Notes under the pieces: model-generated | What the model was told of the DNA's origin: nothing | Databases searched by the model: none | What the model saw: the letters and a program-made list of their open reading frames with translations, nothing else | Translations under genes and position numbers: made by a program | Source of the DNA: Psammoneis japonica | Lineage: Eukaryota | Direction: 5' to 3' | Length of the DNA stretch: 20,219 bases | Assembly (NCBI GenBank): GCA_008632985.1 | Contig: QPGO01000264.1 | Coordinates: forward strand, 62,001-82,219 | Shown: piece by piece, positions 1 through 17,107 of the stretch | Numbering within the stretch: the first letter of the stretch is position 1 | How the letters are laid out: the number at the start of each line of letters is the position of its first letter

Positions 1-135
1 TTCCACTCAACTCAAAGATGCAATGCAAAGTGAGAGGGACACCACATGGGAGGCACCAGTGCAGTCTGTCCAGCACCAATTTGAGTTTGTCATTTGCAGC
101 AGGCACCAGTGTGGTTTTGAAATTTTTGTTGCCCA

Positions 136-238
136 GCCAGGTTGAAGACATCTTCTTCCATCTCATTTGACAATCTTGAGACTGCCATGGCCAGGTTGAA
201 GACATCTTCCATCTCACTTGGCAGTCTCAAGACTGCCA
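136..238 (+). repeat. Imperfect tandem duplication, period about 54 bp
   Basis: gccaggttgaagacatctt...gactgcca starts at 136 and again at 190; the second copy lacks one ctt and has several transitions. Confidence 0.85.
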
Positions 239-418
239 CAGTCTGCAACAAGAAACCTCCGTTTTCTCACCATGGTGAGCAAGCTGCAAAGGGAAGAAGA
301 TGACAGGTGTTGCACAGAGATTTACCTTTTTCTGCACCAACCTCATTCTTGCAATGCTTGCACGAGGCTCAAGGCTCTCCTTTGAAGGAAAGGAAAAGGA
401 AAGACCCATTTCTTTGTC

Positions 419-1930
419 TTGTCATGGAAGCAAACTGGCTCAAATCTTCTTTGTGGGATCTTGCGCCATCATCCAGAAATTGCAATGCACAACGAGCTGT
501 TCAACCCAACTGACATCTTTGTGCATTGTCCATCAATCACGAGGCATGTTGGTGAAGACCCAAATGACAAGGGCTTGCAATGGACTCACCTTGCTCGGGA
601 TCTCTGCCCAGATGGAATTCTGGAGCACATTTGGACCGGCAAGTGTGCCAGCAGCAAAGAAATCAAGGAAGGAGCAAGGCTGTAGAACTCAAGTCATTTC
701 CCAACAACTGGCCTGGCAAGAATGAAGACATCTGGAGAACGTCAATCTTGGAAAACCACTGCATCAAAAAGATCATGCTGTGCCAAGAAGATGAGCTTGC
801 AGTCTTCATTTTGATGCCACGTGCAGAAAAGAATGGACCCTGCATGAGACTCTCAAGCACCCCAAAGGTCTCAAGGTTCACACAGACCCAGCGTGCTTTC
901 AGGCATTTGTCAACAACTGCAGAGACACCTTTCAATGCAAGCACAAGTCTCCAACAGAAAAACGTGATGCTTTCCAAATCAATTGTGAGCAGATTGTAGA
1001 AGAAGAGCACTTTGATGAAAATGTCTGGCCTCTTCTCTGGCACTTCTTAGAAGTTGATGACAGTGCAACACCAAAGCGGCTCAAGGAGATTGTGGGGTAA
1101 GCTGATGATGACAAGAACCCATCAGAAATCATTTCAAGCTGTGAAGAACTCAAGTTCTGCTTCCGACATGCCAACATGATGCCTTTTCTACATGGGCATC
1201 AAGCACGATGTCTTCTGCATTCAACAAATCTGCTGGCAAGGTGAAGGCTGCTGGAGATCATCTGCTCAAGAAGGCAAGCTTCACAGTCGTTGGACAATTC
1301 TCCTCCCCATTTGCTCTAGAAGGACTCAAAGCAACACCAACAGGGTTTTGCACCGGGATGCGATCATCACCAACTTCAAAGCCAACCGGCTTTTCGAACT
1401 TGTGAGTTCCTCTCAACACTCAGTGGTGGACACTTTTGCAGAAGGTGAATGTTGGGTGCACCTTGAAAACTTTGCCTCTTCCCTGAAGGAAACTTGTTCT
1501 TCCCAGAAGCTCAAAGACACAGTGTGCGTCATTGGAATTGACGTGGACAACAAGATCTTAATTTCAAATCATGCAAAACATCAGATCAGCGACGTGCTTT
1601 GTCCATGCAAGGTTGTTTTTGTTTCCATCTCTGCCATCATGTGCTGTCATGTCTGCAGGATTTGGAGCCACCTGGTGAGCAACACTGGTCAACATGGCAA
1701 CTTTGTTGTGCTTTTTGGCGATGACATTGTTTTGGAAACAAAAGGATGGCAAGACAGAGTTGAGGCACGTTTCCACAAGATTGCAGTTCAAACAGGATTG
1801 CCCTTTGGTGCTGCGCACATCACTCTAAATGACAAGTCATTTCCCAGCTTTCCCACCTTTCCTGCTGTCCATCGATGGTGCATCAACCACTTTGACCACC
1901 TGTTGCTGAAGCAGCTCATGAGTCAGGGAG
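419..1930 (+). pseudogene. 5' part of a degenerate gene: Stf0-like sulfotransferase domain followed by a glycosyltransferase family 2-like domain
   Basis: ORF pieces WKQTGSNLLCGILRHHPEIAMHNELFNP (resembles the sulfotransferase RTGS PAPS loop) and ILLPICSR...IGIDVD...VCRIW...FVVLFGDDI...FPSFPTFPAVHRW (GT2-like DxD region). Many stops and frameshifts; no Tyr in the 272-aa ORF. The true start may lie further upstream. Confidence 0.7.
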
Positions 1931-2021
1931 CAGAGGTGCACAAATCGTCTGTTGTTGTTCGCACACGTGCATTCGCACACTCAGCGCGTGCACGAACGAC
2001 AAAACGATGAGGTGGATCATG
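1931..2021 (+). repeat. Left TIR of the hAT element
   Basis: Reverse complement of 4424-4514; the mismatches are all transitions at CA/TG/CG positions. Weaker similarity continues to about 2074 versus 4361 (ttttatggagc). Confidence 0.9.
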
Positions 2022-3013
2022 CTGGCACTTCCGCCTGTCACGGCGTGCTGTGCGTTTAAGAATTTTTATGGAGCTGAAAGTGGTTCAATTGCTGAAACGT
2101 CACACAACAGCACAATGCATCAACATCAATTCAGACAGCTCTACATCCAAAGCAGAGCAGTGATGCCTCAACCCAATGTTTCCTTTCCAATCTACAACAT
2201 CTTCTTCATTTATGATGGTGAGCAAAGTTCAGCAGCACTGTGGGCAATGGAGAAAATTCACTGTTTGTGCTCACGCCTTCATTCTTTTTCTTTGTTTTTG
2301 CTGTCAGGTGTTTCAGCGACGGCGTTTCTCAGGATGAACATTTGCCGGTGGCTGCAGTTGGTCGAGTGCGAATTGGCTTGGTCGCAACCATCATTTTGGC
2401 AAAGCAAAATGGAGCATGTTTCATGTGAGCTTGTCTTCTCTGCTGTTTGTAAATTGTGGCTTTGACAGCTGCATGTTGAAGAAATGTTCTCACCGACTCT
2501 GCTGTCTGCTGCTTGTGTAATTGCCACAGGATGTCCACTTGTGCAACTGCCACAGAAAATGTCAATGCACCCATTTGAAGTGGAGTGGGCTGTCCTGCAT
2601 GTGGTCGTGCATCAACGTCCAAAGCAGTGTGTCCATGATGATGTGGATGCAGGGTTTGCGCCCTAATTCACTGAAGCCCAAAGATGTCTGGTGTGGAACT
2701 CCGCAATTTTGTGCGTGGGAAGGTTGATGGCGAGCAAAGCATGATTGACAATGCCATGTCACGACACTTGTTGGTGTTTGGTGCACACACTGACAACGAA
2801 GCTTTTGTTTCCGCGTGCAGGAACTGGTGACTTGAGGAGATGATAGAGAGCTTTCTAGACACGTGCACATGCGACAAGACAGCAAGTCTTGGTCGCCAAT
2901 GCGATGCGATCGAGAGAACACGATGCCTTGGCTGCTCACTAGAGTCAATCCTCTCTACTTGCACCTCTCTAGCAGCCACCAGTCCACTCTCTAGAGAGAG
3001 ACAGAGCAACTGA

Positions 3014-3037
3014 CTCTCTCTCTCTCTCTCTCTCTCT
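3014..3037 (+). repeat. (CT)12 microsatellite in a CTCTAG-rich patch
   Basis: Read directly from the sequence. Confidence 0.95.
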
Positions 3038-4423
3038 GCCAGACAAGAGAGGGAGGGCCCCAAAACTTTGTCAGTTCGGTCTCTCTCTAGCTGTTTCTCT
3101 AGCTAGAGCAGAGAGGTCATGCCCGCCAACCTTGCCAGCAGCAACAGATTGGTGCATCTCCGGTCCACAATTTTGCAAAACATCAAACGAAATGTGCTGC
3201 CATGGTCTTGCAATTGTTGCCGGCAGTTTGAAGAAGATGGAGTCCAGCTGCCAGCTAGAGAGGTCGTTCCATTGTTGTCATTCAAATTTCATCTTTCATT
3301 GTTCAGCTCATGTCATGTGACACAATGGCACCAGTTGGACCACATGACATGCGATGCTCTTCAGATCCAGCGGCATCATGAATGCAGGTGCATGGCAGCA
3401 GGCAGCTCCTGTTGTGTGGTGTCTCAAGAAACGCTCGGCGTCAAAGCTGTTCATTGCCCGGATCGAACGTGAAGACAAGTGTCACACAGGACGAGCCCTG
3501 TCGCGGTCGACTGTTGAGGCTAAAGAACAAAAGAAATGGGAATCCATGATGATTGTTTCCATGTGCAAGGCACTCAGTTGGTGTGTGATTTGCACAACAG
3601 AAGGCACCAATGGGCCAGTCCAAGAAGCAGTTGCTGATGACGCCTCCTCCTTGGTTGCTTCTTCACCATTGTTGCCTTCAATGGTTTCCCTGATGATGGC
3701 ACGAGCCACTCGTTCCAAGGAAAATGAGTCAATGATGGCCTGCACATCCCCTTGGAGGCAAGCGGTGCTTGGATGCATCCATGCTTGTTGGTGCCATCCG
3801 CATTTTCCTCCAGCAACACACGCTCGGATTCATGCACAATTCCCATGCTGCATGCAGCATCTAAACCCATGGGAGCAGTGACATTTCGATGCACACCTCC
3901 GGCACCAGGCAACAGATCCAACTCAATCTGCACTCCATCGTTGGCAGCAAGTCACATGGATTTCTTGACTCCGTTTCTCTCCACCAACTTGAGGTAAAAA
4001 TGGTGTCTGGCAACAACCATTTCACCTTTTCCCTTGAATCCCTGTTCAAGCAAGTGAACAAAGGAAGCTCTCAAAGCAACAGCAGCCACCTTTTTCCCTT
4101 CTGGAACTTGGCAACAACCCAACAGCGGATGCGCGGCATTTGTGGCAATGCAGCACTGACCGATCTCTTTGCACATCAATTCACAATCACTCCAATTGCA
4201 TTGGCATTGATCACATGCCAGCAACTGTGACCTTGGCACATTGCGCGGAGCATCTGATGTCAGCACAAGTGATTGCATCATCGGGTGTGGCAGAACATGG
4301 ATGCAAACTTGTCGTTTGGTGTGCGTTGCGTCATGTCGAATTTGTAAAAATTTCGATTTTGCTCCATAAAATTTCTTGTGGGTGCAACAGGTCATGACAG
4401 ATCTTGCGTTGAAGATCTGCGCA

Positions 4424-4514
4424 CATGATCCACCTCATCGTTTTGTCGTTCGTGCGCACGCTGAGTGTGCGAATGCGCGTGTGTGAATGACAACAGACGA
4501 TTCATGCACCTCTG
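4424..4514 (-). repeat. Right TIR of the hAT element
   Basis: Inverted copy of 1931-2021. Confidence 0.9.
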
Positions 4515-5910
4515 TCAGGGAGGTGATCTGCACTTGTTTGAGCTGCACAGTTGATGGAATGCATCTTCCTTGGAAATGTCTTGCAAGCTCAGGAAGACAC
4601 TCGGCAGGGACAGCTTTGTGTGGCATGAAAAATGTGCCATCAATTGGCCAGGTCAGATCCTCACATTAAGTCTGATGAAGCTTGAACGTTTTCCAGGTGC
4701 TGGGAAACCCACTGGCCTCTGCATTGATGTTGTTGTCCCATCCTGCTGATGCAACAACAGAAGCATTCTCAAAAAGATTGCAAGTCTTTGCTCTGCCCAG
4801 CATTTGAATGTGAGATTTTGGGCTGTTGCTGATCACCCGACGGAGCCCCATCTCGCAGATGTCAGAAGGCTGGCAACTGACATGCAAGAAAAGCAAGATG
4901 ATGGCAATTGCTTTGTCAATGTGATTCACTGCAGCAAAAACTGAGGTGCAAGCTGTGCAAGAAACACTGGGCACAACTGTTCAACAGATGATTGGGTTCT
5001 TTTTCTTGATGATGATGCTGTTGCTGATGATCACATTCGTCTTTGTTGGGCAAACATCTTTCCTGTTACCTTGCAATGCATGGACTGACATTCGGCATGC
5101 CAGCAATGTCGTGTGCTTTTGAGAAACAATGACGCATCAAGCTCACCCTCCATGTGGGGCATCACTGCAAACCTTCTTGTGCGTGGCTCTCATCTTAACC
5201 ACACAATTCAGTTCAAGGATTTGCACCCAAAGACCGGAGGTGGAGAAGATGTTGATTTCATCTTTTCAGATGAAAGAGTGGTGTTGAAAGGAAGGGAACG
5301 CAATGTGCGCTGTCGTTGGCATTCCAGGTGCAACTGCATCCCATCCATGGTGGAGAGGAGGAAGAGTCTGCTGCAAACAAATTTGAGGTTGAGCCTGGGG
5401 TGACTCTTTGTGCATCACCGAGTGGCCAGAGAAATTGCATTTTTGCCTGCCAAACTGGGTCGAATTCATTGCATGCATTCTTCCTGTTGTTGGCTGTTTT
5501 TCCAGCAACTGCAATGGAGCTCTCCATTCTGTTCTCTTCATTGCTGTCCTGGATCCCTGGGTGAAAGAGTCCACGTTTTACACTGCTGCACTTGCCAATC
5601 CATGGAATGATGGGTCATTGTTGCGAGCATCGCTTGTCACTCTCGGTGCAAGTGCGGTGATCTCATCGCAAGAAATTGCCCACTTGCTTGCACTCATTTG
5701 GCATCTAAGTCTTTTGTCATTGAATGGATTGGTTTGATGGACAGGCAAAGACGCAAGTGCTTGACATCCAGCTGCGTGCAGGTGTTTTCTTCCTTGTCAA
5801 TTTTTTTGTCACTTGCCACCTTTGTGAGGTGTTTCTTGATCCTTTTGCGGTGCTTCTTCACTGTGGCTGTTGATGAAGCAAGGAATTTGATCATTCACTT
5901 TTGTGGATAA
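4515..5910 (+). pseudogene. 3' part of the same glycosyltransferase-2-like pseudogene
   Basis: Continues QGGDLHLFELHS*WNA, then FFLDDD, GITANLLVRGS...HPKTGGGEDVDF and GDSLCITEWPEK...LPNWVEF, followed by hydrophobic C-terminal segments. Multiple frameshifts and stops. Confidence 0.7.
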
Positions 5911-6002: not shown

Positions 6003-9000
6003 TCACGCAGCCTGTGCTACACCTTTTCCGGCATCCACAAGGCTTACCCACAGAGAGAAGACAGTGTTGAGCCGCATCTTGTCTTCCACTCCCTTGAAAA
6101 GAGCAAATCCTTCTGTTCTGTATTCTGTCAATGGATCCAGATACTGGTGTTGCCGCAAAATTACGCTTTCTTTCAAACCTTCCATTGACTGCAAGTGATC
6201 ACTCCATGCATTGTCCATTGACACAAGAGCAATGTAGTTTGCTGATCGAGAAAGAGATTCCGGTGAAAGAGATTTAATCTTTGAGTTGAAAACCTCCTCA
6301 ATGGCCACATTGATGAGAAATTTCACCCCATTTTTCGTCCCGTCCAGACAAATCGCTTGTCTTCAACAAGGGTCCAACCGGCGGGAAAAACTGACCAATC
6401 TTCTCTGCTACCTTCTCGACATTAACCGAGCCATCTTCACCAACCTGAGCCTTCACGATGTCTTCCACTGTGTCCTTGTTGTACGTTTTCACTATTTCCA
6501 GAGTATCTCCAGGGCGTCGAAAATAAAATGCTACGGCGACGGTTGTAGATCAAACTGCGTTGGTCGTTGAGCACCTCGTCAAATTTAAAGACTTCCCCGC
6601 GTATTTCGCGGTATTTTCCTTCCACGGCTCGTTGAACCTTGTCGATCGCTTCAGTGATTTGATCTGCTTCCACCGGCATGTCGTCCGATACTCGAAACAT
6701 TTTCAGCATTTTCTGGAGACTGTCACCGCCAAAAATAACAAACGACCGCGTAGCTGCATGTTGATGCGAGAACTTTCATGGCGATTAGTCCCCAAGACAT
6801 ACAAATCACCGCTTTTCAGAACCCGCTCTTTTTCTTCTTCCAAGACGGGTTTGTACACACTTTTTACAGCCTCCGCAGCGTCACGAAGTTTAATGATGAG
6901 ATCGGGATCTTCTTCGTTTTCGGTAGTGTCAGTTGCAACCGTCAAGATTTCGTCTAAATCGATAGCCGTAAGGTCTTTTCCAATCTCTTTCTTGATGGCG
7001 GAAGCCGCTTCCTTCAATGAAAGAACGACATCATCATCGATAGGACAAGGGAAATAGTCTTCAGAAGGCGAAGGAGGGAGCGTCGAAGCCTCCTCCTCAG
7101 ACAAAACTCCTTGCTCTACAAGAACAGACCTTGTTTTGATTCGAGCCATTGTTGTGGGACAACCACCCAGTAGAACCACCCAGTAGAATATCCTACCACC
7201 CCCAGCCATGTTTGTCGCAACCGTCACTACACCAACTCGTCCAGTTTGTGCGACGATTTCGGATTCGCGCGGCGCATTCTTTGGCGATGCATTGAGTAGC
7301 TCAGCCTCGATCCCCTCTTCTGCAAGGGCAGCTACAACCATTTCACTCTGTGCTACAGACGTGGTTCCGATTAGGCAGGGTCGACCATCCTCTTGGCCAC
7401 CACCGACGCCGAGTACTTCTTTGATCAGGGCATCATTTGCGGCCTTTCGTGTCTTGAATGCTACATCAGGATAATCGCGACGCGCAACTGGAAGCGCCGT
7501 AGGCACAGGCGTCACCTTTAGGTTGTACGTCAATTCCAATTCGTCGGCATCGGCCATTGCAGTTCCTGTCATGCCGGACAAGCGAGAATGTTCTGTTGGA
7601 GATAGCAAGAGAAGTGCGCCAGCGTTTTGACCCTCAAGTGCGAAGCTGGGCGCACGATTCGTCCTAAAGTAGAAGGAGTAGCGTACCTGATAAGTCACTT
7701 TTGCAATTACTTGACTTTGCTGCGAGACTTCGATACCCTCTTTGGCTTCGATGCTTTGGTGAAGGCCGTCCGACCACCTACGCCCATCCAAAACTCGCCC
7801 AGTAAATGCATCGATGATTCCAACACCATTCTCCTTACCATTCTCATCAGTCAGAATGGTGTACTCGACGTCTTTGTTGAAGAGCTCCTTGGCTTTCACC
7901 GTCTGCCTGGATAGCGAAAAGGCTATCAATACCCAATGCATTTTCTGCGTCGCGGTATCCCGTTTCAGTACGTACACAATTCTTATTCTTCTCATCCACT
8001 GTGTACTGGACATCTTTTCCAGGGCTTGTGCCAGGGTGCTGGCCGTTGCATACTTGTTGGCAGGCGCAGCAACCTGTTTCGAGATAACCAATGGGGTCCT
8101 CGCCTCATCAATCAATACCGAATCCGCCTCATCCACAACCCAAAAACCATTGAACTCTCCGGCACCCCCGGGCAAGATAGTTTGCGCAGGTGACAATGCC
8201 AAGTGGTCACGAAGGTAGTCAAATCCGAGTTCCGAATTCGTCACGTAGACAACATTACAAGCATACGACTTTTTCCGTTGCTCTTCTGTCATACCACTCT
8301 GAATAAGACCAACAGTCAATCCCAAGAATCGATGGACTTGGCCCATTTTCTCCATATCTCTTCTCGCCAAATAGTCGTTTTACGGTAATGACAAAGGAGG
8401 TGTTGCCTGTCAAGGCATTGACATAGCAAGGCAACGTTGACACGAGAGTCTTTCCCTCTCCAGTGGCCATTTCGGTCAGTCTTCCATCGTGCAGAATCAA
8501 ACCACCTAGCATCTGTAAATCGTAATGCCGCAATTCCAAAACGCGCCTTTGAAAAAAGTGAAAAAATTGGAATGAGAAGCGGCCGCTATGGAAACGGTTT
8601 TAGAGCCAGAACTATCTTGCTTTCTTGTATCTCACCATGCAGCTTCCCTGACCACCGCGAAGGCTTCTTCCAACAAAGGACCATTCACGTCTTCTCCTTT
8701 CTTGAGTCTCTCATGAAATTCGTTAGTTTTGGCCAGCAATTCATCATCGTCTAATTCCTCGATCGTTTCTTCCAAGCCATTGATCCGGTCGACGCGAGTC
8801 TTGAGGCCGGCCAGGTGCTTGTCGTTTTGAGCCTTTCATGTCTTTTCATCCGTTCTCTCCATGAAGTCATCAAAAAGGACATTTTCAATGCACCATTGGG
8901 ACATGATAAATTGGTGTTTCTGGCAGAAGCAACCGAGTGTGATCGGGCAAAGGAAACCGCAGCTTTCTTTTGAGGAAAACAAACGAGGATGCCTAATATC

Positions 9001-9585
9001 CCTGGTCCGTTCCTGGTCTCACTTATGTGAGACAGTGCCGAAATCTCGGTCATAGTCATTCATCGGGTCATTCAACCCCCTGTCTCACATTTGTGAGACC
9101 AGGATTTTATTTACATCAACGTCATCCTATGCTATATAAAATTGTGTTTTGCACGTCCAATGCAACATCCTGCATGAAAAACCCACTTTTAAAATGGCAG
9201 CTCCCAAATGTTTGTTCTGTACAATCTACGTGTTTTCCAGCACAAATCCTGGTCTCACATTTCTGAGGCCAGGGCCACATTTGCACCTAAAATGCCTCTC
9301 CCTTCCGGGTGCATCATGGAAAGCCGCTTTAGATTGTTCAAACGACTTCAACCACCAGACACTTGCGTTTGAGCATGCTTTGACTCCTTCGGTCTGCTCA
9401 GGTGTCAAATGACCGGCTCCTGTGTTGTTGTGGGTCACTGAAAACCTGGTCTCACTCCAGTGAGACCAGAATTCGCGGACCAGGGATGCAGGCAGAAAGC
9501 CACAACAGTGCCGCTGCTGTGACACAGAATGATGACCACGTCCCCTGACTGCCCGACACAAACCAGGCTTGCACAGCGGCTTCAT
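6003..9585 (-). pseudogene. secA: Nuclear-encoded plastid-type preprotein translocase SecA, disrupted
   Basis: Motifs [94 protein letters not shown] and FDEVLNDQR. Introns at about 8547-8633 and 7593-7686. Predicted ATG at 9585 once the MITE is removed, giving MKPLC...GFLPILGILVCFPQKKAAVSFARS (AVS-F resembles the ASAFAP cleavage motif). In-frame TGA near 8838, several frameshifts, a 13-bp duplication and internal deletions. Confidence 0.9.
9000..9485. mobile_element. piggyBac-like MITE (486 bp) inserted in the secA presequence
   Basis: Ends CCCTGGTCCG...CGGACCAGGG; flanks ATAT (8996-8999) and ATGC (9486-9489); four internal palindromes of the type CCTGGTCTCAC-N4-GTGAGACCAGG. Excision with a 4-bp TSD restores an open secA N-terminus. 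The superfamily call rests on the CCC...GGG ends and the 4-bp TSD. Confidence 0.75.
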
Positions 9586-9949
9586 CACGGAAACGGTGAG
9601 CGTGTTTGTCTGTGTAAGAATCACTCAGGTGTGCCACATGAAAGAGGAATTAGGAATTTTAGAATCCTCTAATTGTGGAAAAATGCACACTGTCACCACA
9701 CACAAAATTTGTTGCTCAGAACCGCAGTCAACATGAATCGACAACAGCCGGTTGTTTTTCATGCAAACTGCTGACACTGAGGAAAAAATGAGACATGTTG
9801 TCGTTCATGGTGTTGTCGAGGCAATGTGTCATTTTTTCCTTAGTGTGAGATGTTTTGATGTCGTCATTGTCGACGTGGTTGACAATGGTGGATGGAATCT
9901 CACTCACCTCATTTCTCCTTGTTCATCTGTGTAGAATTCTATGCAAAGA

Positions 9950-10900
9950 ACACACCAGGTGTCGGCATCAATTTCTTCCCACCATGTGTGCCACCATTGT
10001 CACTCCATTGACCATTGCTGTTTTTCTCGGCATGTTTCTTGAAGTGTCTTGCATCCTTCAGCTCCCCAATGTGTTGCACCACCTGATTGTGTGGTGCCTT
10101 TTCCTGAGTGGAGTTGCGCAGACCAACAGTTTGGTTTTTTGCAGCCGCTCAGATCAACCACACTGCTTGTTGTCAAGAAATCCACCATCGGGCGAATGGC
10201 TCAAGGACCCAGGGGAAATGCAACTGCATCTCAATGATTCCGACTTCTTTGCAACATAGAAGGTAATCACAGACAACAGCACTAGAGTGTTGCCACTGCA
10301 ATTTTAACTTTCGCAGCTGCTTTTGCAGTCGAGTCCAACAAGTTTTCTGGCTCGCCCAAGAACTGGACAACATTGAGCCATGGGAATCTGTTTCTGGCAA
10401 GTGACACAACTCCAACAGTGAATTCACAAGCAAGCCATGCAGCCAGTCTATAAATCTGACACTTGCAAGACAATTCTCAGAGAGCACAACACTCAAACAC
10501 CGACATGCCAGTTGTTCAAGGGGTGCAGCTTTGAGCTCTCCTGCAGAGTGGCATCATTGTTGCACCAAAACAAGCTAAACAACAAAGCCTTGCTCTACAA
10601 AATTTACAGAGCAAGAGCTCCAATGCATGCAGCAAGGAATCCAGCTGCTGGAAAACTGGGTCCATGAGTGCACAAGCCACAAGCTCGCCATCTGCCAACA
10701 TTTCTCGGTCTTCCCCTGCCAGTTGCACAATGAGCGGTCCACCTTCCTTCCACCAAAATGGTTTCCACTCAACAGGTCTCCAAGGCAAGTCTGCTGTGAG
10801 GATGAGAAATGTTGTGCCAGTTCTTGTTCTTGATGAGCTGCCATCCCTCAACATTCTTGGAATGACGCTGAACGCCGATGCATTGTGCATGGGCAGAAAC
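9950..10900 (-). other. TpA-depleted degenerate sequence with coding-like fragments, identity unknown
   Basis: Minus-strand ORF fragments 10516-10890 and 10173-10496 look protein-like but I cannot assign a family. ORF length is inflated here because TAA/TAG are lost. Confidence 0.25.
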
Positions 10901-11749
10901 TCACTTCTGAATCAATTTTTGACAGAAAAAGCCCATCATGAAACAACCCCACACAATGAGACTCAGAAATGAAAAAAGAATGTAAAAACAACCCTCTGAT
11001 TGTCTCTGTCTTTTGCCATTGTCATGGTGACATGACAGCGGTGGATGTGAAAAAAGAGGTGAGAGATTGGGCAATGAGCACAGCTCACCATTCTCCATGA
11101 AACGCGTGTTGAAACCACTGTGCCTGCGGGGAGCATTGACCACTTGTGTGTCTTTCTTTGTGGCTGTGGGTGGGTGTGTGCGTGCCATTGCATGCTGCAT
11201 TGCCTGCACTGCGCACACGTGCAGCATCAGTGAAGACTCTACAGTGCAGTGGTGGCGTGGCCACCACACCGGTGACACAGATGACCATTGTGTTTGATGG
11301 CTCATGCCATTTTTGGGGCTGTGGCGAGGTGCGCGGACACTCTTTTTTTTCAATTTATCGCCAAAATGGCGCATCGCACAAACTCTCTCACTGTTCGACA
11401 TGTCCTTTCCAATGTGACCATTTCGTGCAGAATTCACGACATGTTGTCTTCATTCAAAGCTGGGTGCATTTTTCAACATGCCACACTGGCAACCCCAATT
11501 TTACAACACTTTCGAGCTCTCCTGAAAAACCGTTCCACGCACCCGTCGCAGGGAATTTGTCGATTTTTTAGGATGTCCCCATGACCTCTAATGTCCTCAA
11601 TGATCATTCCCCAAATCCGAACACATCATTCACACCAAATGACCCATGCCATTCTAAAATCTGAGGGACACACTTTCAAAAGCAGACAAACTGCCCGACC
11701 CCCTGACTGCCCGACTGCACAACTGCACAACCCCCCGACACGAAAAAGA

Positions 11750-13015
11750 CTGCAATCACCAACCACTGAGTGGTCAATGAAAAGTCTGCAATCACCAACC
11801 ACTGAGAGTGTCTTTTCCAGTGAGTCGCAAACACAAACCTGTGTCTGCATGTCTTCCGATGCAAATGAGATTCACAAAAAATCATCATTTTTGGTGGATC
11901 GCAAACATGTTTTTTGCACCTTGGATGCGATCCACCTTCAAAATCGCAAACAACAATCGCAAATTTCTGGTGCAAAAAGGGTGCAGAAAACCTGTGGAAA
12001 GTGTGCGTCACCATGACGAGACAACAATCGATGCTTTCTTGATGAGAGGACCTTGCAGAGGCCCAACAACTGACACTTTGTTGCATCTTATGAACTTGCA
12101 CACGACGCGTTCCAGGTCCAGGTGGGACCTCGCACTGCTGAACTGTGACATCGACAGTTTTTTGAATCGCGTCGCATGTCGCGCACGCACATTTCTACGT
12201 GATTTTGGCGAAATTTTGTGTGATTTTACAGTGCAATTGTCAGGCTATCCATTGAACAACTTTTAACATTTTTTTCTTCTGCGCCATTCTCGAGTGTCTC
12301 AAGAATGGCGCAGGGCAGGCGCGTTGTCCAAAACTTCGAGTGCCAACATGGATGGATGCACTGCAAACTTGGCCGTTTTTTTTATGTCGAAGACAAATGC
12401 ATCCATTGGCCAGAGTACGAACTACAGAGCTCGCACGTAGAATTCTATGGGGCAAATGTCACAAAAAGTCCCACCTGGGACTGGAACCCGTCACACGGCC
12501 GCATCGAGATGTGAGAGGAGAGCGGACATGTGGGGGGTTTGTGGGGTCAGAAGAGAACAAGGCACAATTCGCACGACAACATTTCACTTGTTTTTGCAAT
12601 GTGGAATGACTTTCACAACATGGCAACACATGGGCACACACTGTGAATCATTCTCCAGTGACAGACGTCGACACATCTTTGAATGGATTGTGGTTTGTGT
12701 TGTGTGTTGCGCTCAAAGCCGCCATGGCATCATGCAATGTTCAACAACTCCATCCTGCCATCAGTTGGTTGTTGATGTTCATGCACGAAGTTGCTTGTTG
12801 CCTCAACGTCTGCCCAAACATCGGCCGAATGTGAGTGCGATTGTGGTCGACTGAAAATGATGGTCGCGCGCAGAACTGCAAACTTGTGCATGGCAGTCTG
12901 TTCGCTTGCCCTTTTTGGTCATGTTCCTGTGTTTGTGTTTGCGACTCACTGGAAAAGATGCTCTGAGTGGTCAATGAAAAGTCTGCAATCACCAACCACT
13001 GAGTGGTCAATGAAA
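11750..13015 (+). repeat. Three tandem 36-bp units (ctgcaatcaccaaccactgagtggtcaatgaaaagt), the second split by the Harbinger insertion
   Basis: Unit 1 at 11750-11785, unit 2 at 11786-11805 plus 12967-12982, unit 3 at 12983-13015. Each contains the palindrome ACCAC-TGA-GTGGT. Confidence 0.9.
11806..12963. mobile_element. PIF/Harbinger-like non-autonomous element, 1158 bp
   Basis: 33-bp TIRs GAG(TG/CA)TCTTTTCCAGTGAGTCGCAAACACAAAC at 11806-11838 and 12931-12963; 3-bp TSD TGA. The empty site CAC-TGA-GTG is visible in the sister repeat units and resembles the PIF target consensus CWCTTAGWG. Confidence 0.85.
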
Positions 13016-13017
13016 TT

Positions 13018-13101
13018 GAACTTTCGCGCGGAGCGCGAACTTTCGGCGAAAGTTGCCCCCTTTTGGAGCGCGAAGCGCTCCAACTTTCGGCTGAAAGTTG
13101 G
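13018..13101. other. Cluster of four closely packed DNA hairpins/palindromes
   Basis: ttcgcgc-GGA-gcgcgaa (13023-13039), aactttcg-G-cgaaagtt (13038-13054), ttggagcgc-GAA-gcgctccaa (13063-13083), ccaactttc-GGCT-gaaagttgg (13080-13101). Confidence 0.9.
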
Positions 13102-13256
13102 GAAACGGAGGGGCTCGCGCAGGAAAAAAAGTTCGTCCGTTGGTGTGTCCGTTGAGTCTTGAATGTGAATCTTGTAAAGAGTGAGTCGTGCGTTGAGTCG
13201 TCTTCAGTGAAACTGCCGCCACCGAAAACACGAAACGCGAAACCTCGCCATGGGCT

Positions 13257-13973
13257 ATGAAACAATGTCGCGCCGTCGCGAGAAGCCCTGGTGTCAAAGT
13301 AAGATACATGAAGAAGTGCATCATGGATGGGAAAACCGCCGACACCGCAATCCCTGTAGAAGAGCAGGACGTCGACGAATCGGCATCAATCAATCAGTCA
13401 AGTACCAGTTGTGTTGTGTCAAGTGTGCCAAGTGCCAATTGTGGTGTTGCTCATGTGCCAGTGTCTTCAGCACCAAATGGCATTACAGACAGTGTGGAAG
13501 CAACAAAGAAGAAACGAGGACGTCCTCGGAAGATCCGATCGCCCAAATTCGCGGTCTCGGATGCGCCGTTGTTTTATACACCGGATCTTCGAAAGAATTT
13601 GATGTCGTCGGAAAGCCAACACCAAAGTCAAGGCCGAAGCGTGGGTGGAATAGAAATGCACACAACCCAAACCAAGCTGCTGAGAAAGAGTTTGCAGGTG
13701 TAGTTTCAGATCTCTGCCAATCCAGACTCGATTCAATACCCAAGTTCCGCGACGGTGTCTTGTTGAAGGCTCGGCTTGAATTTGCTTTTTCTGGGAAGAG
13801 CCTCAAGGATGCAGGAGACATCGGACATCGACAACCTCTGTAAATTTGTTTTGGACAGCTTAAACACAGTGTTGTATCATGATGATTGGCAAGTTGTAGA
13901 GTTGTCGGCGCGAAAAGTACTTGCTTCGTCCGAATCTACCGGACGTACAGTCGTTACATTGAATGAAATTTGA
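13257..13973 (+). pseudogene. rusA: RusA-family Holliday junction resolvase with N-terminal AT-hook, two frameshifts
   Basis: KKKRGRPRK AT-hook; RusA N-terminus FDVVGKPTPKSRPKR...NPN; catalytic region DIDNLCKFVLDSLNTVLYHDDWQVVELSARK. Frameshifts at about 13575 and at about 13817-13830. The start may instead be the ATG at 13323. Confidence 0.85.
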
Positions 13974-14371
13974 AACAGATAGTTCTATAAATGTGCTGTA
14001 GCACCTAATCACTTGATGTGTGAGTTACTTTGCCTAGTTTCATTTTACTTTAGCCTACTTGTATCGCGATGAAGACGTTCTAGAGATGCTAGCGAGAAAA
14101 GCACTTGTTCGTACGAATCGACTGGTCGTTGCACTAAACCAAATTTGAAATAGCATTTTTCACTTGACACACATCTTACCTTGCTCTACTTGTATCTTTA
14201 TGATTGGCGCGTTGTGGAGTCATCAACGAGAAAAGCACACTCACTTCGTCCGAATCGACCGGACGCACAGTCGTTGCACGGCAACAAGTTTGAAATAGAA
14301 ATTTCTACAGCACAAGCTTCTATTAGAACTGTAGCACAATTGCTTGACATGTGTTTTACTTTGGCCCACTT
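13873..14371 (+). repeat. Three diverged tandem copies of the RusA 3' end plus the intergenic spacer
   Basis: Units at about 13873-14060, 14061-14190 (most degraded) and 14191-14371 share tgtatc, gaaaag(t/c)ac, cgaatc, gtcgtt(a/g)ca and tttgaaa; units 1 and 3 also share ctgtagcac and ttttacttt(a/g)gcc(t/c)actt. Confidence 0.85.
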
Positions 14372-16886
14372 CTTTGCATGTGGGTTCACGGGTTTGTTGG
14401 GACTGTTGCTGGCAGCTTTGGATGTGACCTTTTTCACGAATCCTGCCTGGATGCTCTGTCACTGCTCGCCGATGGTTGACACATTCTGAATCTTCCTTGT
14501 GCACCAGAACTCGAGCCTCAAGACCTGTGAAGCAAGGTTGTGTTCTTTCCTTCTTCTTGTCATCCAGTGGGTTCTTCATGCCACCGTCTTCTTCCATCTT
14601 CCTCATTCTTTCCAGGCAAGTGTTCTGAACAGCGCAGCAAACATTGTGAAAATCCACGGATTTGTCATCATGCAGACGAATCGTGCGCCACTGGTCTTCC
14701 GTCATGACGCATTCTAGGAGCTCAAAAGCTGCTTTAAACTTCTGTGGCTCTGCCTCACTGTTTGGAAACTTGAGGTGCAAAAGCCGCTCCTTGGCCAGCG
14801 CTGAAAGGTGACCAAGCTGCTTGAAGAAAAATTGGGCACACATGCAAAGAGACTTTTGCGCCTGTGCTGTCAGCCAAGCCGTCCACTTGATCATGCAATG
14901 TCAGCTTCTTTGTCTTTTTGTTTGATTTCTTCTTGCTTGCAAACCAAGTCAAGAACAGTGTCACAACAGTGGGAGATCGTGGCTTTCTCGTGGAGGCTGT
15001 GACAGGCTGAGTCGCAGTGGCTGACTCGTCAGAATCAACACGACATTGAGAAGTGGCCGGCACATCATCATCAGCAGCAGCAGCATCGGCATCGGCATGT
15101 CTGGTGTGCTTGCAGTGCTGGTGTCAACAGAGTCATTTGGAGTGGAGCCGGTGTTTTGATCAATGACTTTGCACTCGATGCCGTCATCTCGATTGGATGC
15201 TTTTTCATCCGCCAAATCCGTCATGCTGTCTTCCTCCTCTGGTGACAGGAGTTTGACGTTCATTTTCCTGCTCAGCTGATTGGCCTCAAGCTGAGCAATC
15301 TCCAAGTTGCAAAGGGCATGGGCTTGCTCAGAAAGCTTGGTGCATTGTGCATCACATGCCAACAATGCACATGACAGCAGCTCATTCTGATGCTTCAGCT
15401 GCACAGCAAGGTTGAGATCACTCAAAAGATCAGGATTGCGGTCTCAAAAGCTCTCATCCATTTTCTTTCCCCAGATCCAAAGCACTTGTGAGGTGTCAGC
15501 AACATTGCCATCACCAATCTTTGCTTCTGCCAATGGCTCTGGCGGAGTTTTTTGGAAACTTCAGCATGATGCTGAATCATGGCTGCCATGCAGGAGCACT
15601 AGAACAGATGAAGCTCCCCACCTGGCATGAATTGTTTGAGAGTGCCCAACATCACACACAATTTTTCAATGAGCCATTCAATGTCCTCTTGCACATGGCT
15701 CCCGACACATTCCAAGTTCGGAGCACATTTCTTGGTGGGAGCATCATCCCAGCCCATCATTGCATTGGCCACTGGAACAGTGAGCTGAGGTGCAATGCGT
15801 TTGCAAGTCTTGCCGTTGGGAGCTCTGCACGCCCATCCAACCAGAGTGTCAGCTTCTTCAACAGACACTCCTTGATGTGAATTCAAAAATGCAGCCATGC
15901 TGACTCCAATGGACTCAGAAGAACAATCAGTCTGCAGAACTGGGTTGACCTTGCCTCGAATGACACTGGTCGACTTTGCTGCAATGCACTTGTCAGAGAT
16001 GCTCCATGAGTCTGGAGATGCGTGCTTGTGGAGCTCCTTTTCCATGTGGTCTGGATGACAAAGACCTTTCTCACATGCATGGAAGCACGCAAAAGCACAA
16101 CAGAAAGAGACAAGAGCTTTTGTTTGGTGGGAAAAGGAGTCCATGCAAATCTGCTGTTTTGGGCTCACACCGCGCAGCTTCCAAATTCTCATGGAACAAA
16201 TCCCAGAACCATTTGTCATGACATTGATGCCTCATTTCCCCTCCACATCCGGCAGCCATGGTGCTTGCCAAAATCCAGCAATGCTGCTGAAGAGGACCAT
16301 TGTTCATCATTGTCCAACGTCGAACAAAATTGCATTGAAGAGCGAGTGAGAGACGCAATGTCTCTGCGTCGTTTGTGAGTGAACCATTCTCACATCTCAA
16401 TGTCGCACTTCTGTCTGTGACACAAGAATGGCATTTTGCTGCTTGGCTTGAAACAAGTGGCAAAGTCCTGCATTCGCTGCACTCGATGCTCAGCAAGTTG
16501 GCTTTGCCAGCGGCCTTTGCGGCATCACTGCACAGATCCTTGCACCACTTGTCCTCTTCTTCCCAGTCAGGGTGCTTAGGGAGCTTCATTTTTAGTTCTT
16601 CTTTCACCTTTCCAAAAATTTGCTGCTTTGTGTCAACTTTTATGAGCCTGTTGTTGGGATTGTCACGCCGACAGACTGGCTCTTCTGACAAGTGCTTGCT
16701 GAAGTGCATCATGAGTGCCCTGAGATGGCACCCGTCAACATGACACTCCTCCAATTGGTTGAACAGTTTCTCTTCATTTTTGTCTTGAATCGTGTCAAAC
16801 GTTTTGATTGCAGACTTTTCGCTGCTTGTGGCAGAAGAGGCTCGAGACGCCTTGTTGATGGGCGCCTCCAAGACCAAAGTGGGCAT
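14366..16886 (-). pseudogene. Degenerate tyrosine recombinase (Crypton-like), about 840 codons
   Basis: Ordered motif remnants AAG[C]GGE (TGT from CGT would give catalytic R-GGE), EPKT, D[C]SSESIG (SxxR position), xGW and KT[C]KR (TGC from TAC would give catalytic Y). ATG at 16886; stop reconstructed at 14366-14368. The call depends on back-mutating the regional signature. Confidence 0.6.
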
Positions 16887-17107
16887 CCTGCGCGGCTGAT
16901 CTGTGGCAGCGCATGGCTTCTGTGATGGCTGTGTGGCTGCTCTGCTTTTTTGTGAGACGACAGCTCTGCTGGTGCAACTGCATGTCTCCTCTCGAACACA
17001 GCACAGTGGCGCAGAAGTCTTGCAGGTGGGTGGTGAGTCTGATGGAAAATGTTCAGGCGCGGTTCAAGGTCACATGTTTATTCAGACATGAGGTGCTCTA
17101 TTACAGT

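Follow-up and report, generated by a model that had tools for sequence, protein, structure and literature searches.

The window analysed here is the whole stretch of 20,219 nucleotides taken from contig QPGO01000264.1 of Psammoneis japonica, and it contains two broken genes in convergent orientation. A gene with an AT-hook and a RusA domain lies on the plus strand, a gene read as a Crypton-type tyrosine recombinase lies on the minus strand, and between their bodies the 3' end of the RusA gene is present in three tandem units, called c1, c2 and c3 (Table 1). The window also has genes broken by introns, among them a fragment of SecA on the minus strand (6703-8379; Pfam SecA_DEAD, 177.6 bits). 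According to the dinucleotide profile, three stretches (1-5500, about 9250-13174 and 14358-17078) are nearly TA-free and rich in TG and CA, and the stretches between them have a normal TA content. The difference is large: the observed/expected TA ratio is 0.49-0.56 in the flanks and in host genes versus 0.04 in 14358-17078. The tandem array lies in a TA-normal island at 13175-14357 (45 TA, observed/expected 0.52), where the body of the RusA gene (13175-13873) gives 0.32, and the left neighbour of this island, 12447-13174, has not a single TA.

Two sets of repeats were also noticed. An inverted repeat of 91 nt with 91% complementarity and arms 2402 nt apart (1931-2021 and 4424-4514) is located within a TA-erased zone and may represent the ends of another element. 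An exact direct repeat of 41 nt (11766-11806 and 12963-13003) is found near the left side of the RusA gene and is overlapped by an inverted partner of 41 nt (93%).

Table 1. Features of the junction between the two genes (window positions; for the six sites the changed base is given in c1 and in c3)
Feature	Position	Strand	Remarks
AT-hook-RusA pseudogene	13494-13973	+	Pfam match and tblastn of companion proteins
Tandem duplication of 7 bp (heptamer x2)	13817-13830	+	Frame shift just before DIDNL; relatives have ...ADIDNL without the duplication
Unit c1	13874-14060	+	187 nt; last 32 RusA codons, stop, spacer; 16 TA, observed/expected 0.94
Internal re-duplication of c1, about 20 bp	c1a 14021-14040, c1b 14041-14060	+	Repeat families
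End of c1	14055-14060	+	Kept CTACTT, AAG TAG on the minus strand
Unit c2	14061-14191	+	131 nt; CTACTT kept at 14186-14191; 8 TA, observed/expected 0.71
Unit c3	14192-14371	+	180 nt; abuts the recombinase gene; 8 TA, observed/expected 0.56; last TA 14357
TA-erased zone	14358-17078		6 TA in 2721 nt; observed/expected TA 0.04, TG 1.60, CA 1.78, CG 0.44
Crypton-type tyrosine recombinase pseudogene (as read)	14366-16886	-	At least 3 frame changes, in-frame TGA codons, catalytic Tyr -> Cys
TGG where c1 and c2 have TAG; putative former recombinase stop	14366-14368	-	Unit comparison, tail frame
One extra base, shifts the recombinase tail out of frame	14496	-	Absent from three paralogous contigs
Site	13898 / 14216		TA>TG
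Site	13918 / 14238		TA>CA
Site	13946 / 14266		TA>CA
Site	13956 / 14276		TA>TG
Site	14052 / 14363		TA>TG
Site	14056 / 14367		TA>CA

The open reading frame 15599-16231 of the minus-strand gene has 22 homologues at E<=1e-3 (mostly 750-830 amino acids long), seven of them at E<=1e-10, and tblastn of these proteins covers the window from 16895 to 14460 in alternating frames. The family alignment contains the motifs GRGGE, W-x-E-x-KT, S-x-K-S-x-R-x-G and RGGW and an invariant or nearly invariant Tyr. None of 11 recombinase homologues showed a domain in a Pfam scan, and a sequence profile search of the PDB with the recombinase family gave coiled-coil noise only. The core of one relative (L001) was modelled with a pLDDT of 87.3 and a pTM of 0.90, and among ranks 1-10 of a Foldseek search with this model FLP comes first, followed by Ndc10, Cre, lambda integrase and XerH; the match to FLP, the best one, has E = 7.7e-3 and a TM of 0.52, and no match reached E<=0.001. 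On the strength of the alignment motifs and of the matches of this fold model the gene is read as the pseudogene of a Crypton-type tyrosine recombinase. The open reading frame 14241-14900 gives the frame of its last conserved domain (90.5 bits, other frames below 0).

The Arg of GRGGE is invariant in the relatives, which have K-x-x-R where the tetrad R-H-R-Y has H-x-x-R, and in the window the first tetrad Arg reads Cys (AAGCGGE) and so does the tetrad Tyr. In the columns with Tyr in at least 60% of 13 relatives the consensus Tyr is kept at none of seven and Cys stands at four, including the one column where all 13 relatives have Tyr. Consensus Arg is kept at 4 of 15 columns, with three changes to Cys and three to His, and these Arg losses are a read-out of CpG decay. 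This comparison of the recombinase with its family establishes the direction of mutation, and much more clearly than the triplication does. At 14710-14711, 15423-15424 and 15445-15446 the window has CA and high-depth paralogous contigs have TG, which fits one ancestral dinucleotide resolved independently in each copy. The TA-free zone 14358-17078 takes in the recombinase coding sequence and exceeds it by 192 bp on the upstream side and by 8 bp on the downstream side.

The plus-strand gene is recognised by Pfam as RusA (PF05866) on 13776-13973 with 42.7 bits against a cut-off of 22.8. An AT-hook, RGRPRK, is encoded at about 13515-13532, the RusA core starts from about 13595 in a frame different from that of the AT-hook, and the C-terminal part extends over 13824-13970 to a TGA stop at 13971-13973. 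DIDNLCK and HDDW can be read in this part, and the matching columns are common to the relatives; they correspond to the putative acidic active-site motif of RusA, D-x-D-N...K with a later DD. In the relatives the companion gene is a single open reading frame with an AT-hook and a RusA domain, the latter detected by Pfam in 5 of 5 loci tested, and in the window these parts are spread over three frames. The companion proteins of loci L002, L011 and L008 (RusA 36.6-49.6 bits) align by tblastn in frames +3, +2 and +3 and also cover the N-terminal piece, for which no Pfam match was obtained when the piece was taken alone and no homologue of near-full length was found in a homologue search. The reading frame is broken by two frame changes, one near 13565 and the other at the heptamer duplication. 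An extra C is carried at about 13565 by a paralogous contig of depth 358, and therefore the window has a 1-nt gap between the frames of the AT-hook and of the RusA core. Homologues of the C-terminal piece are limited to two proteins with 62% identity, which are too distant to polarise synonymous sites.

It had been predicted that the ancestral element had a RusA stop, a short spacer and then the recombinase stop, and this layout is found in relatives. Among 37 related metagenome loci seven have a RusA-like open reading frame convergent to the recombinase, with stop-to-stop distances of 104, 104, 99, 47, 23, 21 and 10 bp, and in many of the others the contig breaks off shortly behind the recombinase.

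The triplicated 3' end of RusA, also part of the original prediction, was confirmed as three head-to-tail units filling 13874-14371. Local alignment scores exceed those of shuffled sequences with z of 36.4 for c1/c3, 16.2 for c1/c2 and 14.7 for c2/c3, and none of 500 shuffles reached the score of any pair. Tandem Repeats Finder at a minimum score of 30 did not report the array, which was found by the repeat-family search. Both internal junctions read CTACTT|GTATC, and the outer breakpoints have only TT in common. The units are old. They differ from each other by 19-28% plus indels, and between c1 and c3 there are 31 differences in 161 aligned columns (20 transitions and 11 transversions) together with several indels. 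Unit c1 continues the RusA reading frame to its TGA, and since c1 contains an internal re-duplication of about 20 bp, the end of c3 can be aligned to c1a or c1b. Compared with c1 and c3, unit c2 lacks nucleotides in four places (3, 1, 8 and about 40 nt). Despite 12 deleted nucleotides it has an open frame of 28 codons (14062-14148) ending at a TGA homologous to the RusA stop, but as the protein identity of c1 and c2 over their common codons is no more than about 50%, c2 is regarded as free of coding constraint.

Each junction is spanned by an exact contig with no other letters: one covers 13850-14143 (depth 32.4), the other 14122-14398 (depth 35), and depths of 32-35 correspond to a single copy. 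A paralogous contig of depth 266 joins 13950 to 14124 and 14153 to 14335 with 33 letters in between, and because of these joins it holds one unit only. The triplication is real and, judging from the contigs, private to this copy of the element, with the reservation that the bridging contigs come from one public sample, perhaps the very one that gave the window, and so are not independent proof of the assembly. An artefact of assembly was considered and set aside, since exact contigs cross both junctions, albeit possibly from the window's own sample. Adjacent double transitions exchange TG and CA among the units at 13903-13904, 13922-13923, 14010-14011 and 14017-14022; in the last of these c1 reads TGTGTG, c2 CACACA and c3 CATGTG. 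Such exchanges would be explained if TA, or alternatively CG, was the ancestral state and each copy resolved it in its own way.

The outer end of c3 is CCCACTT, that is AAG TGG on the minus strand, and it had been proposed that this TGG was once the TAG stop of the recombinase. The proposal is supported when a 1-nt insertion at 14496, a tail motif and a read-through score are taken into account. The frame of AAG TGG differs from the frame of the last conserved domain, and without base 14496 the text ...VHKK IQNV... enters the frame of AAG TGG. This base is absent in run X1 from contigs making up a depth of 304.5 out of 409.4 (two contigs) and in run X2 from 5.76 out of 5.76 (one contig). The C-terminal tail of the family has the motif S/T-I/L-x-x-F... 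followed by a Lys-rich end, and its profile scores a modest 8.3 bits in the AAG TGG frame versus 0.1 and 0.9 in the other two, a score reached by 1 of 1434 windows in the six-frame translation of the whole stretch. A read-through in which the two frames are joined by an X obtains 90.6 bits, a modest gain of 5 bits over the 85.7 and 85.0 of the straight frame. The tail ends with ...NPHAKK immediately before the TGG, and several relatives have KK or KKK immediately before their stop. As for the site itself, CTACTT (AAG TAG) is present in c1b and c2, CTAGTT in c1a and CCACTT in c3 alone, and it is because TA stands here in c1a, c1b and c2 and CA only in c3 that the TGG is accepted as a former TAG. 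Pairwise Smith-Waterman alignment of homologue tails with the three tail frames gave chance alignments only, and the tail frame also contains an in-frame TGA at 14459-14461. The support for the TGG as a probable former stop is thus good but not complete. Past the TGG the frame now runs 56 codons further, to 14198-14200. Only one further segment of the window matches the tail-motif profile as well, 11950-11970 on the plus strand (8.4 bits); it may be what is left of a second recombinase tail, or the match may be due to chance.

The original prediction also held that the array records the direction of mutation, with TA in c1 changed to TG or CA in c3. All six differences that it listed are present at the places given, but only part of this reading can be upheld. 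A single reverse difference, not listed in it, is found at 13976-13977, which is CA in c1 and TA in c2 and c3, so that losses stand to gains as 6:1 (two-sided binomial P = 0.125) and the excess is not significant. Transitions hit six TA positions of c1 versus 3.35 expected (hypergeometric P = 0.09). Since MAFFT and gapped pairwise alignments of c2 are unreliable in the middle of the unit, three-way counts were limited to 132 in-register columns of repeat blocks. In these columns 20 changes are private to c2, 14 separate c1 from c2 and c3, 11 are private to c3 and three are different in all units. The tree of the units is accordingly star-like (branches of 14, 20 and 11 changes) and unrooted, and polarisation by majority is reasonable on that shape; as the root is not known, any polarity called specific to c3 depends on the star.

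On this basis two of the six sites, 13898 and 14056, are losses private to c3 (TA>TG and TA>CA), and the TA at 13898 is also backed by a GTA codon in the outgroup loci L001 and L002. Three others are unpolarised. At 13918 and 13956 c1 is split from c2 and c3, and on a star tree c1 would have gained TA at both, while 13946 gives no polarity since it falls in a deletion of c2. Residues of the relatives decide neither 13918 (L, L, C, R, R, E, L) nor 13956 (S, A, S, R, K, R, I, with T in c1 and A in c2). The last site, 14052, is TA in c1b only and TG in c1a, c2 and c3, and so it probably runs opposite to the predicted direction. Changes private to c3 show no enrichment at TA sites, with 2 of 11 falling there (8 transitions in the 132 columns), and if about one seventh of these columns lie in a TA, which is a rough estimate and not a computed value, the two losses would be about what its 8 transitions hit by chance. 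The edge of the TA-erased zone does not tail off smoothly over the units, as c3 keeps six TA within 14296-14357. It can be said that the triplication alone is a weak recorder and does not establish the direction of mutation. Most of the other differences between the units, at least three of the six listed sites included, are ordinary divergence, either unpolarised or running the opposite way.

The history which we consider likely is that the gene junction of a dead Crypton-type element was triplicated, and that regional erasure of TpA swept the recombinase gene together with the edge of c3. The stretch would be the tail-to-tail junction of an AT-hook-RusA gene on the plus strand and a tyrosine recombinase gene on the minus strand of such a transposon. 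A segment of about 185 bp would have been tandemly triplicated in this copy only; it begins at 13874 with the third base of a RusA Leu codon, takes in the RusA stop and the spacer, and ends with the final Lys codon and the stop of the recombinase. The identical junctions and the 2-nt TT microhomology suggest one origin by slippage or unequal exchange, followed by expansion of the array, and the units would afterwards have diverged by 19-28% with indels. Separately, a regional rewriting of TpA to TpG and CpA, accompanied by CpG decay, would have swept the recombinase gene, with its 3' edge in the last 14 bp of c3, where TAG became TGG, the older AAG TAG being retained in c1 and c2. The triplication, the dinucleotide contrast, the Tyr>Cys changes of the recombinase and the change of the stop site private to c3 are seen directly, as are the identities of both genes, and it is the membership of the stop-site change in the sweep and the order of events that we infer. 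The chemistry would be A-to-G at TpA on either strand, by analogy with what was proposed for Bigelowiella.

Two other explanations of the unit differences were weighed. Recombination between diverged copies could have produced both the array and the sharp edge by bringing together the recombinase and c3 from a hypermutated copy with RusA, c1 and c2 from unmutated ones; the spacer repeat would then be the point of exchange, and the differences between units would be polymorphism of the family and not a record made in place. The element is indeed multi-copy, with 215 contigs matched in run X1, of which 71 are less than 90% alike, and the paralogue of depth 266 fits c1 up to 13950, c2 at 14124-14153 and c3 from 14335. 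The divergence of the units is also about that of the paralogue from the window in 14335-14829 (81 of 495 letters differ), and the 28-codon open frame of c2, retained as far as its homologous TGA, counts in its favour. However, identical junctions fit the expansion of one original duplication, and the low protein identity of c1 and c2 speaks of no coding constraint in c2; this origin is regarded as rather unlikely. Still less credit can be given to the view that the six differences are neutral transitions unrelated to hypermutation, c1 having gained TA through C>T and G>A and c3 having lost two by chance. The absence of a significant excess in either count agrees with it, as do the four TA gains in c1 and c2 on a star tree, or five with site 14052 of c1b (its state being judged from a comparison of both sub-copies with c2 and c3), versus two losses, and the six TA that c3 retains near the edge; c3 itself has no gain by transition beside its two losses. 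Against it, the c3 loss at 14367 is inside the TA-free zone, past the last TA at 14357, with a second TG at 14362-14363, and the adjoining zone lacks about 96% of its expected TA; purely neutral change seems improbable.

It is conceivable, though quite doubtful, that neither chance nor the extent of the element but the recombinase gene itself set the limits of TpA erasure, which would have ended at its stop codon and spared the convergent RusA gene of the same multi-copy transposon. If this were true, gene-bounded erasure would point to targeting by transcription unit or chromatin domain, and the array would provide two unmutated internal controls at the very edge.

A comparable process was reported for Bigelowiella natans, where TpA>TpG/CpA hypermutation of integrated viral DNA was seen in mutation-accumulation lines and an adenosine deaminase was proposed to be responsible (Mettrop et al., bioRxiv 10.64898/2026.01.13.699255). 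The depletion of TpA coupled to enrichment of TpG and CpA in a bounded region is found in 14358-17078 as well. Both cases have in common a local loss of TpA with gain of TpG and CpA, foreign or mobile DNA as the substrate, sharp regional limits and a change of A:T to G:C, here seen as Tyr>Cys in the recombinase and at the two polarised sites of c3. The differences are that our lineage is diatom-like (the word "diatom" is absent from the text of the preprint), that only the end state and not new mutations is observed here, that CpG is depleted too (0.44), and that the target is a small DNA transposon instead of viral DNA.

Among transposons the nearest known group is CryptonS, which is described from oomycetes and Phaeodactylum; its C-terminal region is conserved, and a C48 peptidase gene is present in some cases, the catalytic tetrad of Cryptons being R-H-R-Y (Kojima and Jurka 2011, PMC3212892). 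The likeness consists of a stramenopile-type host, a small element and a recombinase whose C-terminal region is conserved and which has no GCR1_C domain. In contrast to CryptonS with its C48 peptidase, the additional gene here is a convergent AT-hook-RusA, and unlike the R-H-R-Y tetrad the family has K-x-x-R instead of H-x-x-R. Crypton-type elements are bordered by short terminal direct repeats (4-6 bp) and have neither TIR nor LTR; the ends of the present element are situated beyond the junction. A full-text literature search, limited to main texts, returned nothing on TpA erasure in diatoms or on a Crypton with RusA.

Repeat-induced point mutation (RIP) of ascomycetes makes CpA>TpA transitions and enriches TpA. 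It resembles our case in that dinucleotide-specific transitions kill repeated or mobile DNA and wreck its reading frames, and it differs in that TpA is here erased, with TpG at 1.60 and CpA at 1.78. As its direction is opposite and TpA is nearly absent from 14358-17078, RIP was rejected as an explanation; it is also named in the discussion of the Bigelowiella preprint (bioRxiv 10.64898/2026.01.13.699255).

The junction carries a caution, since old tandem copies which differ by 19-28% are unreadable as a clean before-and-after pair. Erasure of TpA deletes TAG and TAA stops and thereby creates long false reading frames, and the 56 extra codons behind the probable former recombinase stop are a worked example, in which two older duplicates of the erased stop persist alongside. 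The edge of the hypermutated domain is placed to about 10 bp, within a transposon and between its two genes, and this position constrains models of how the mutation process is aimed.
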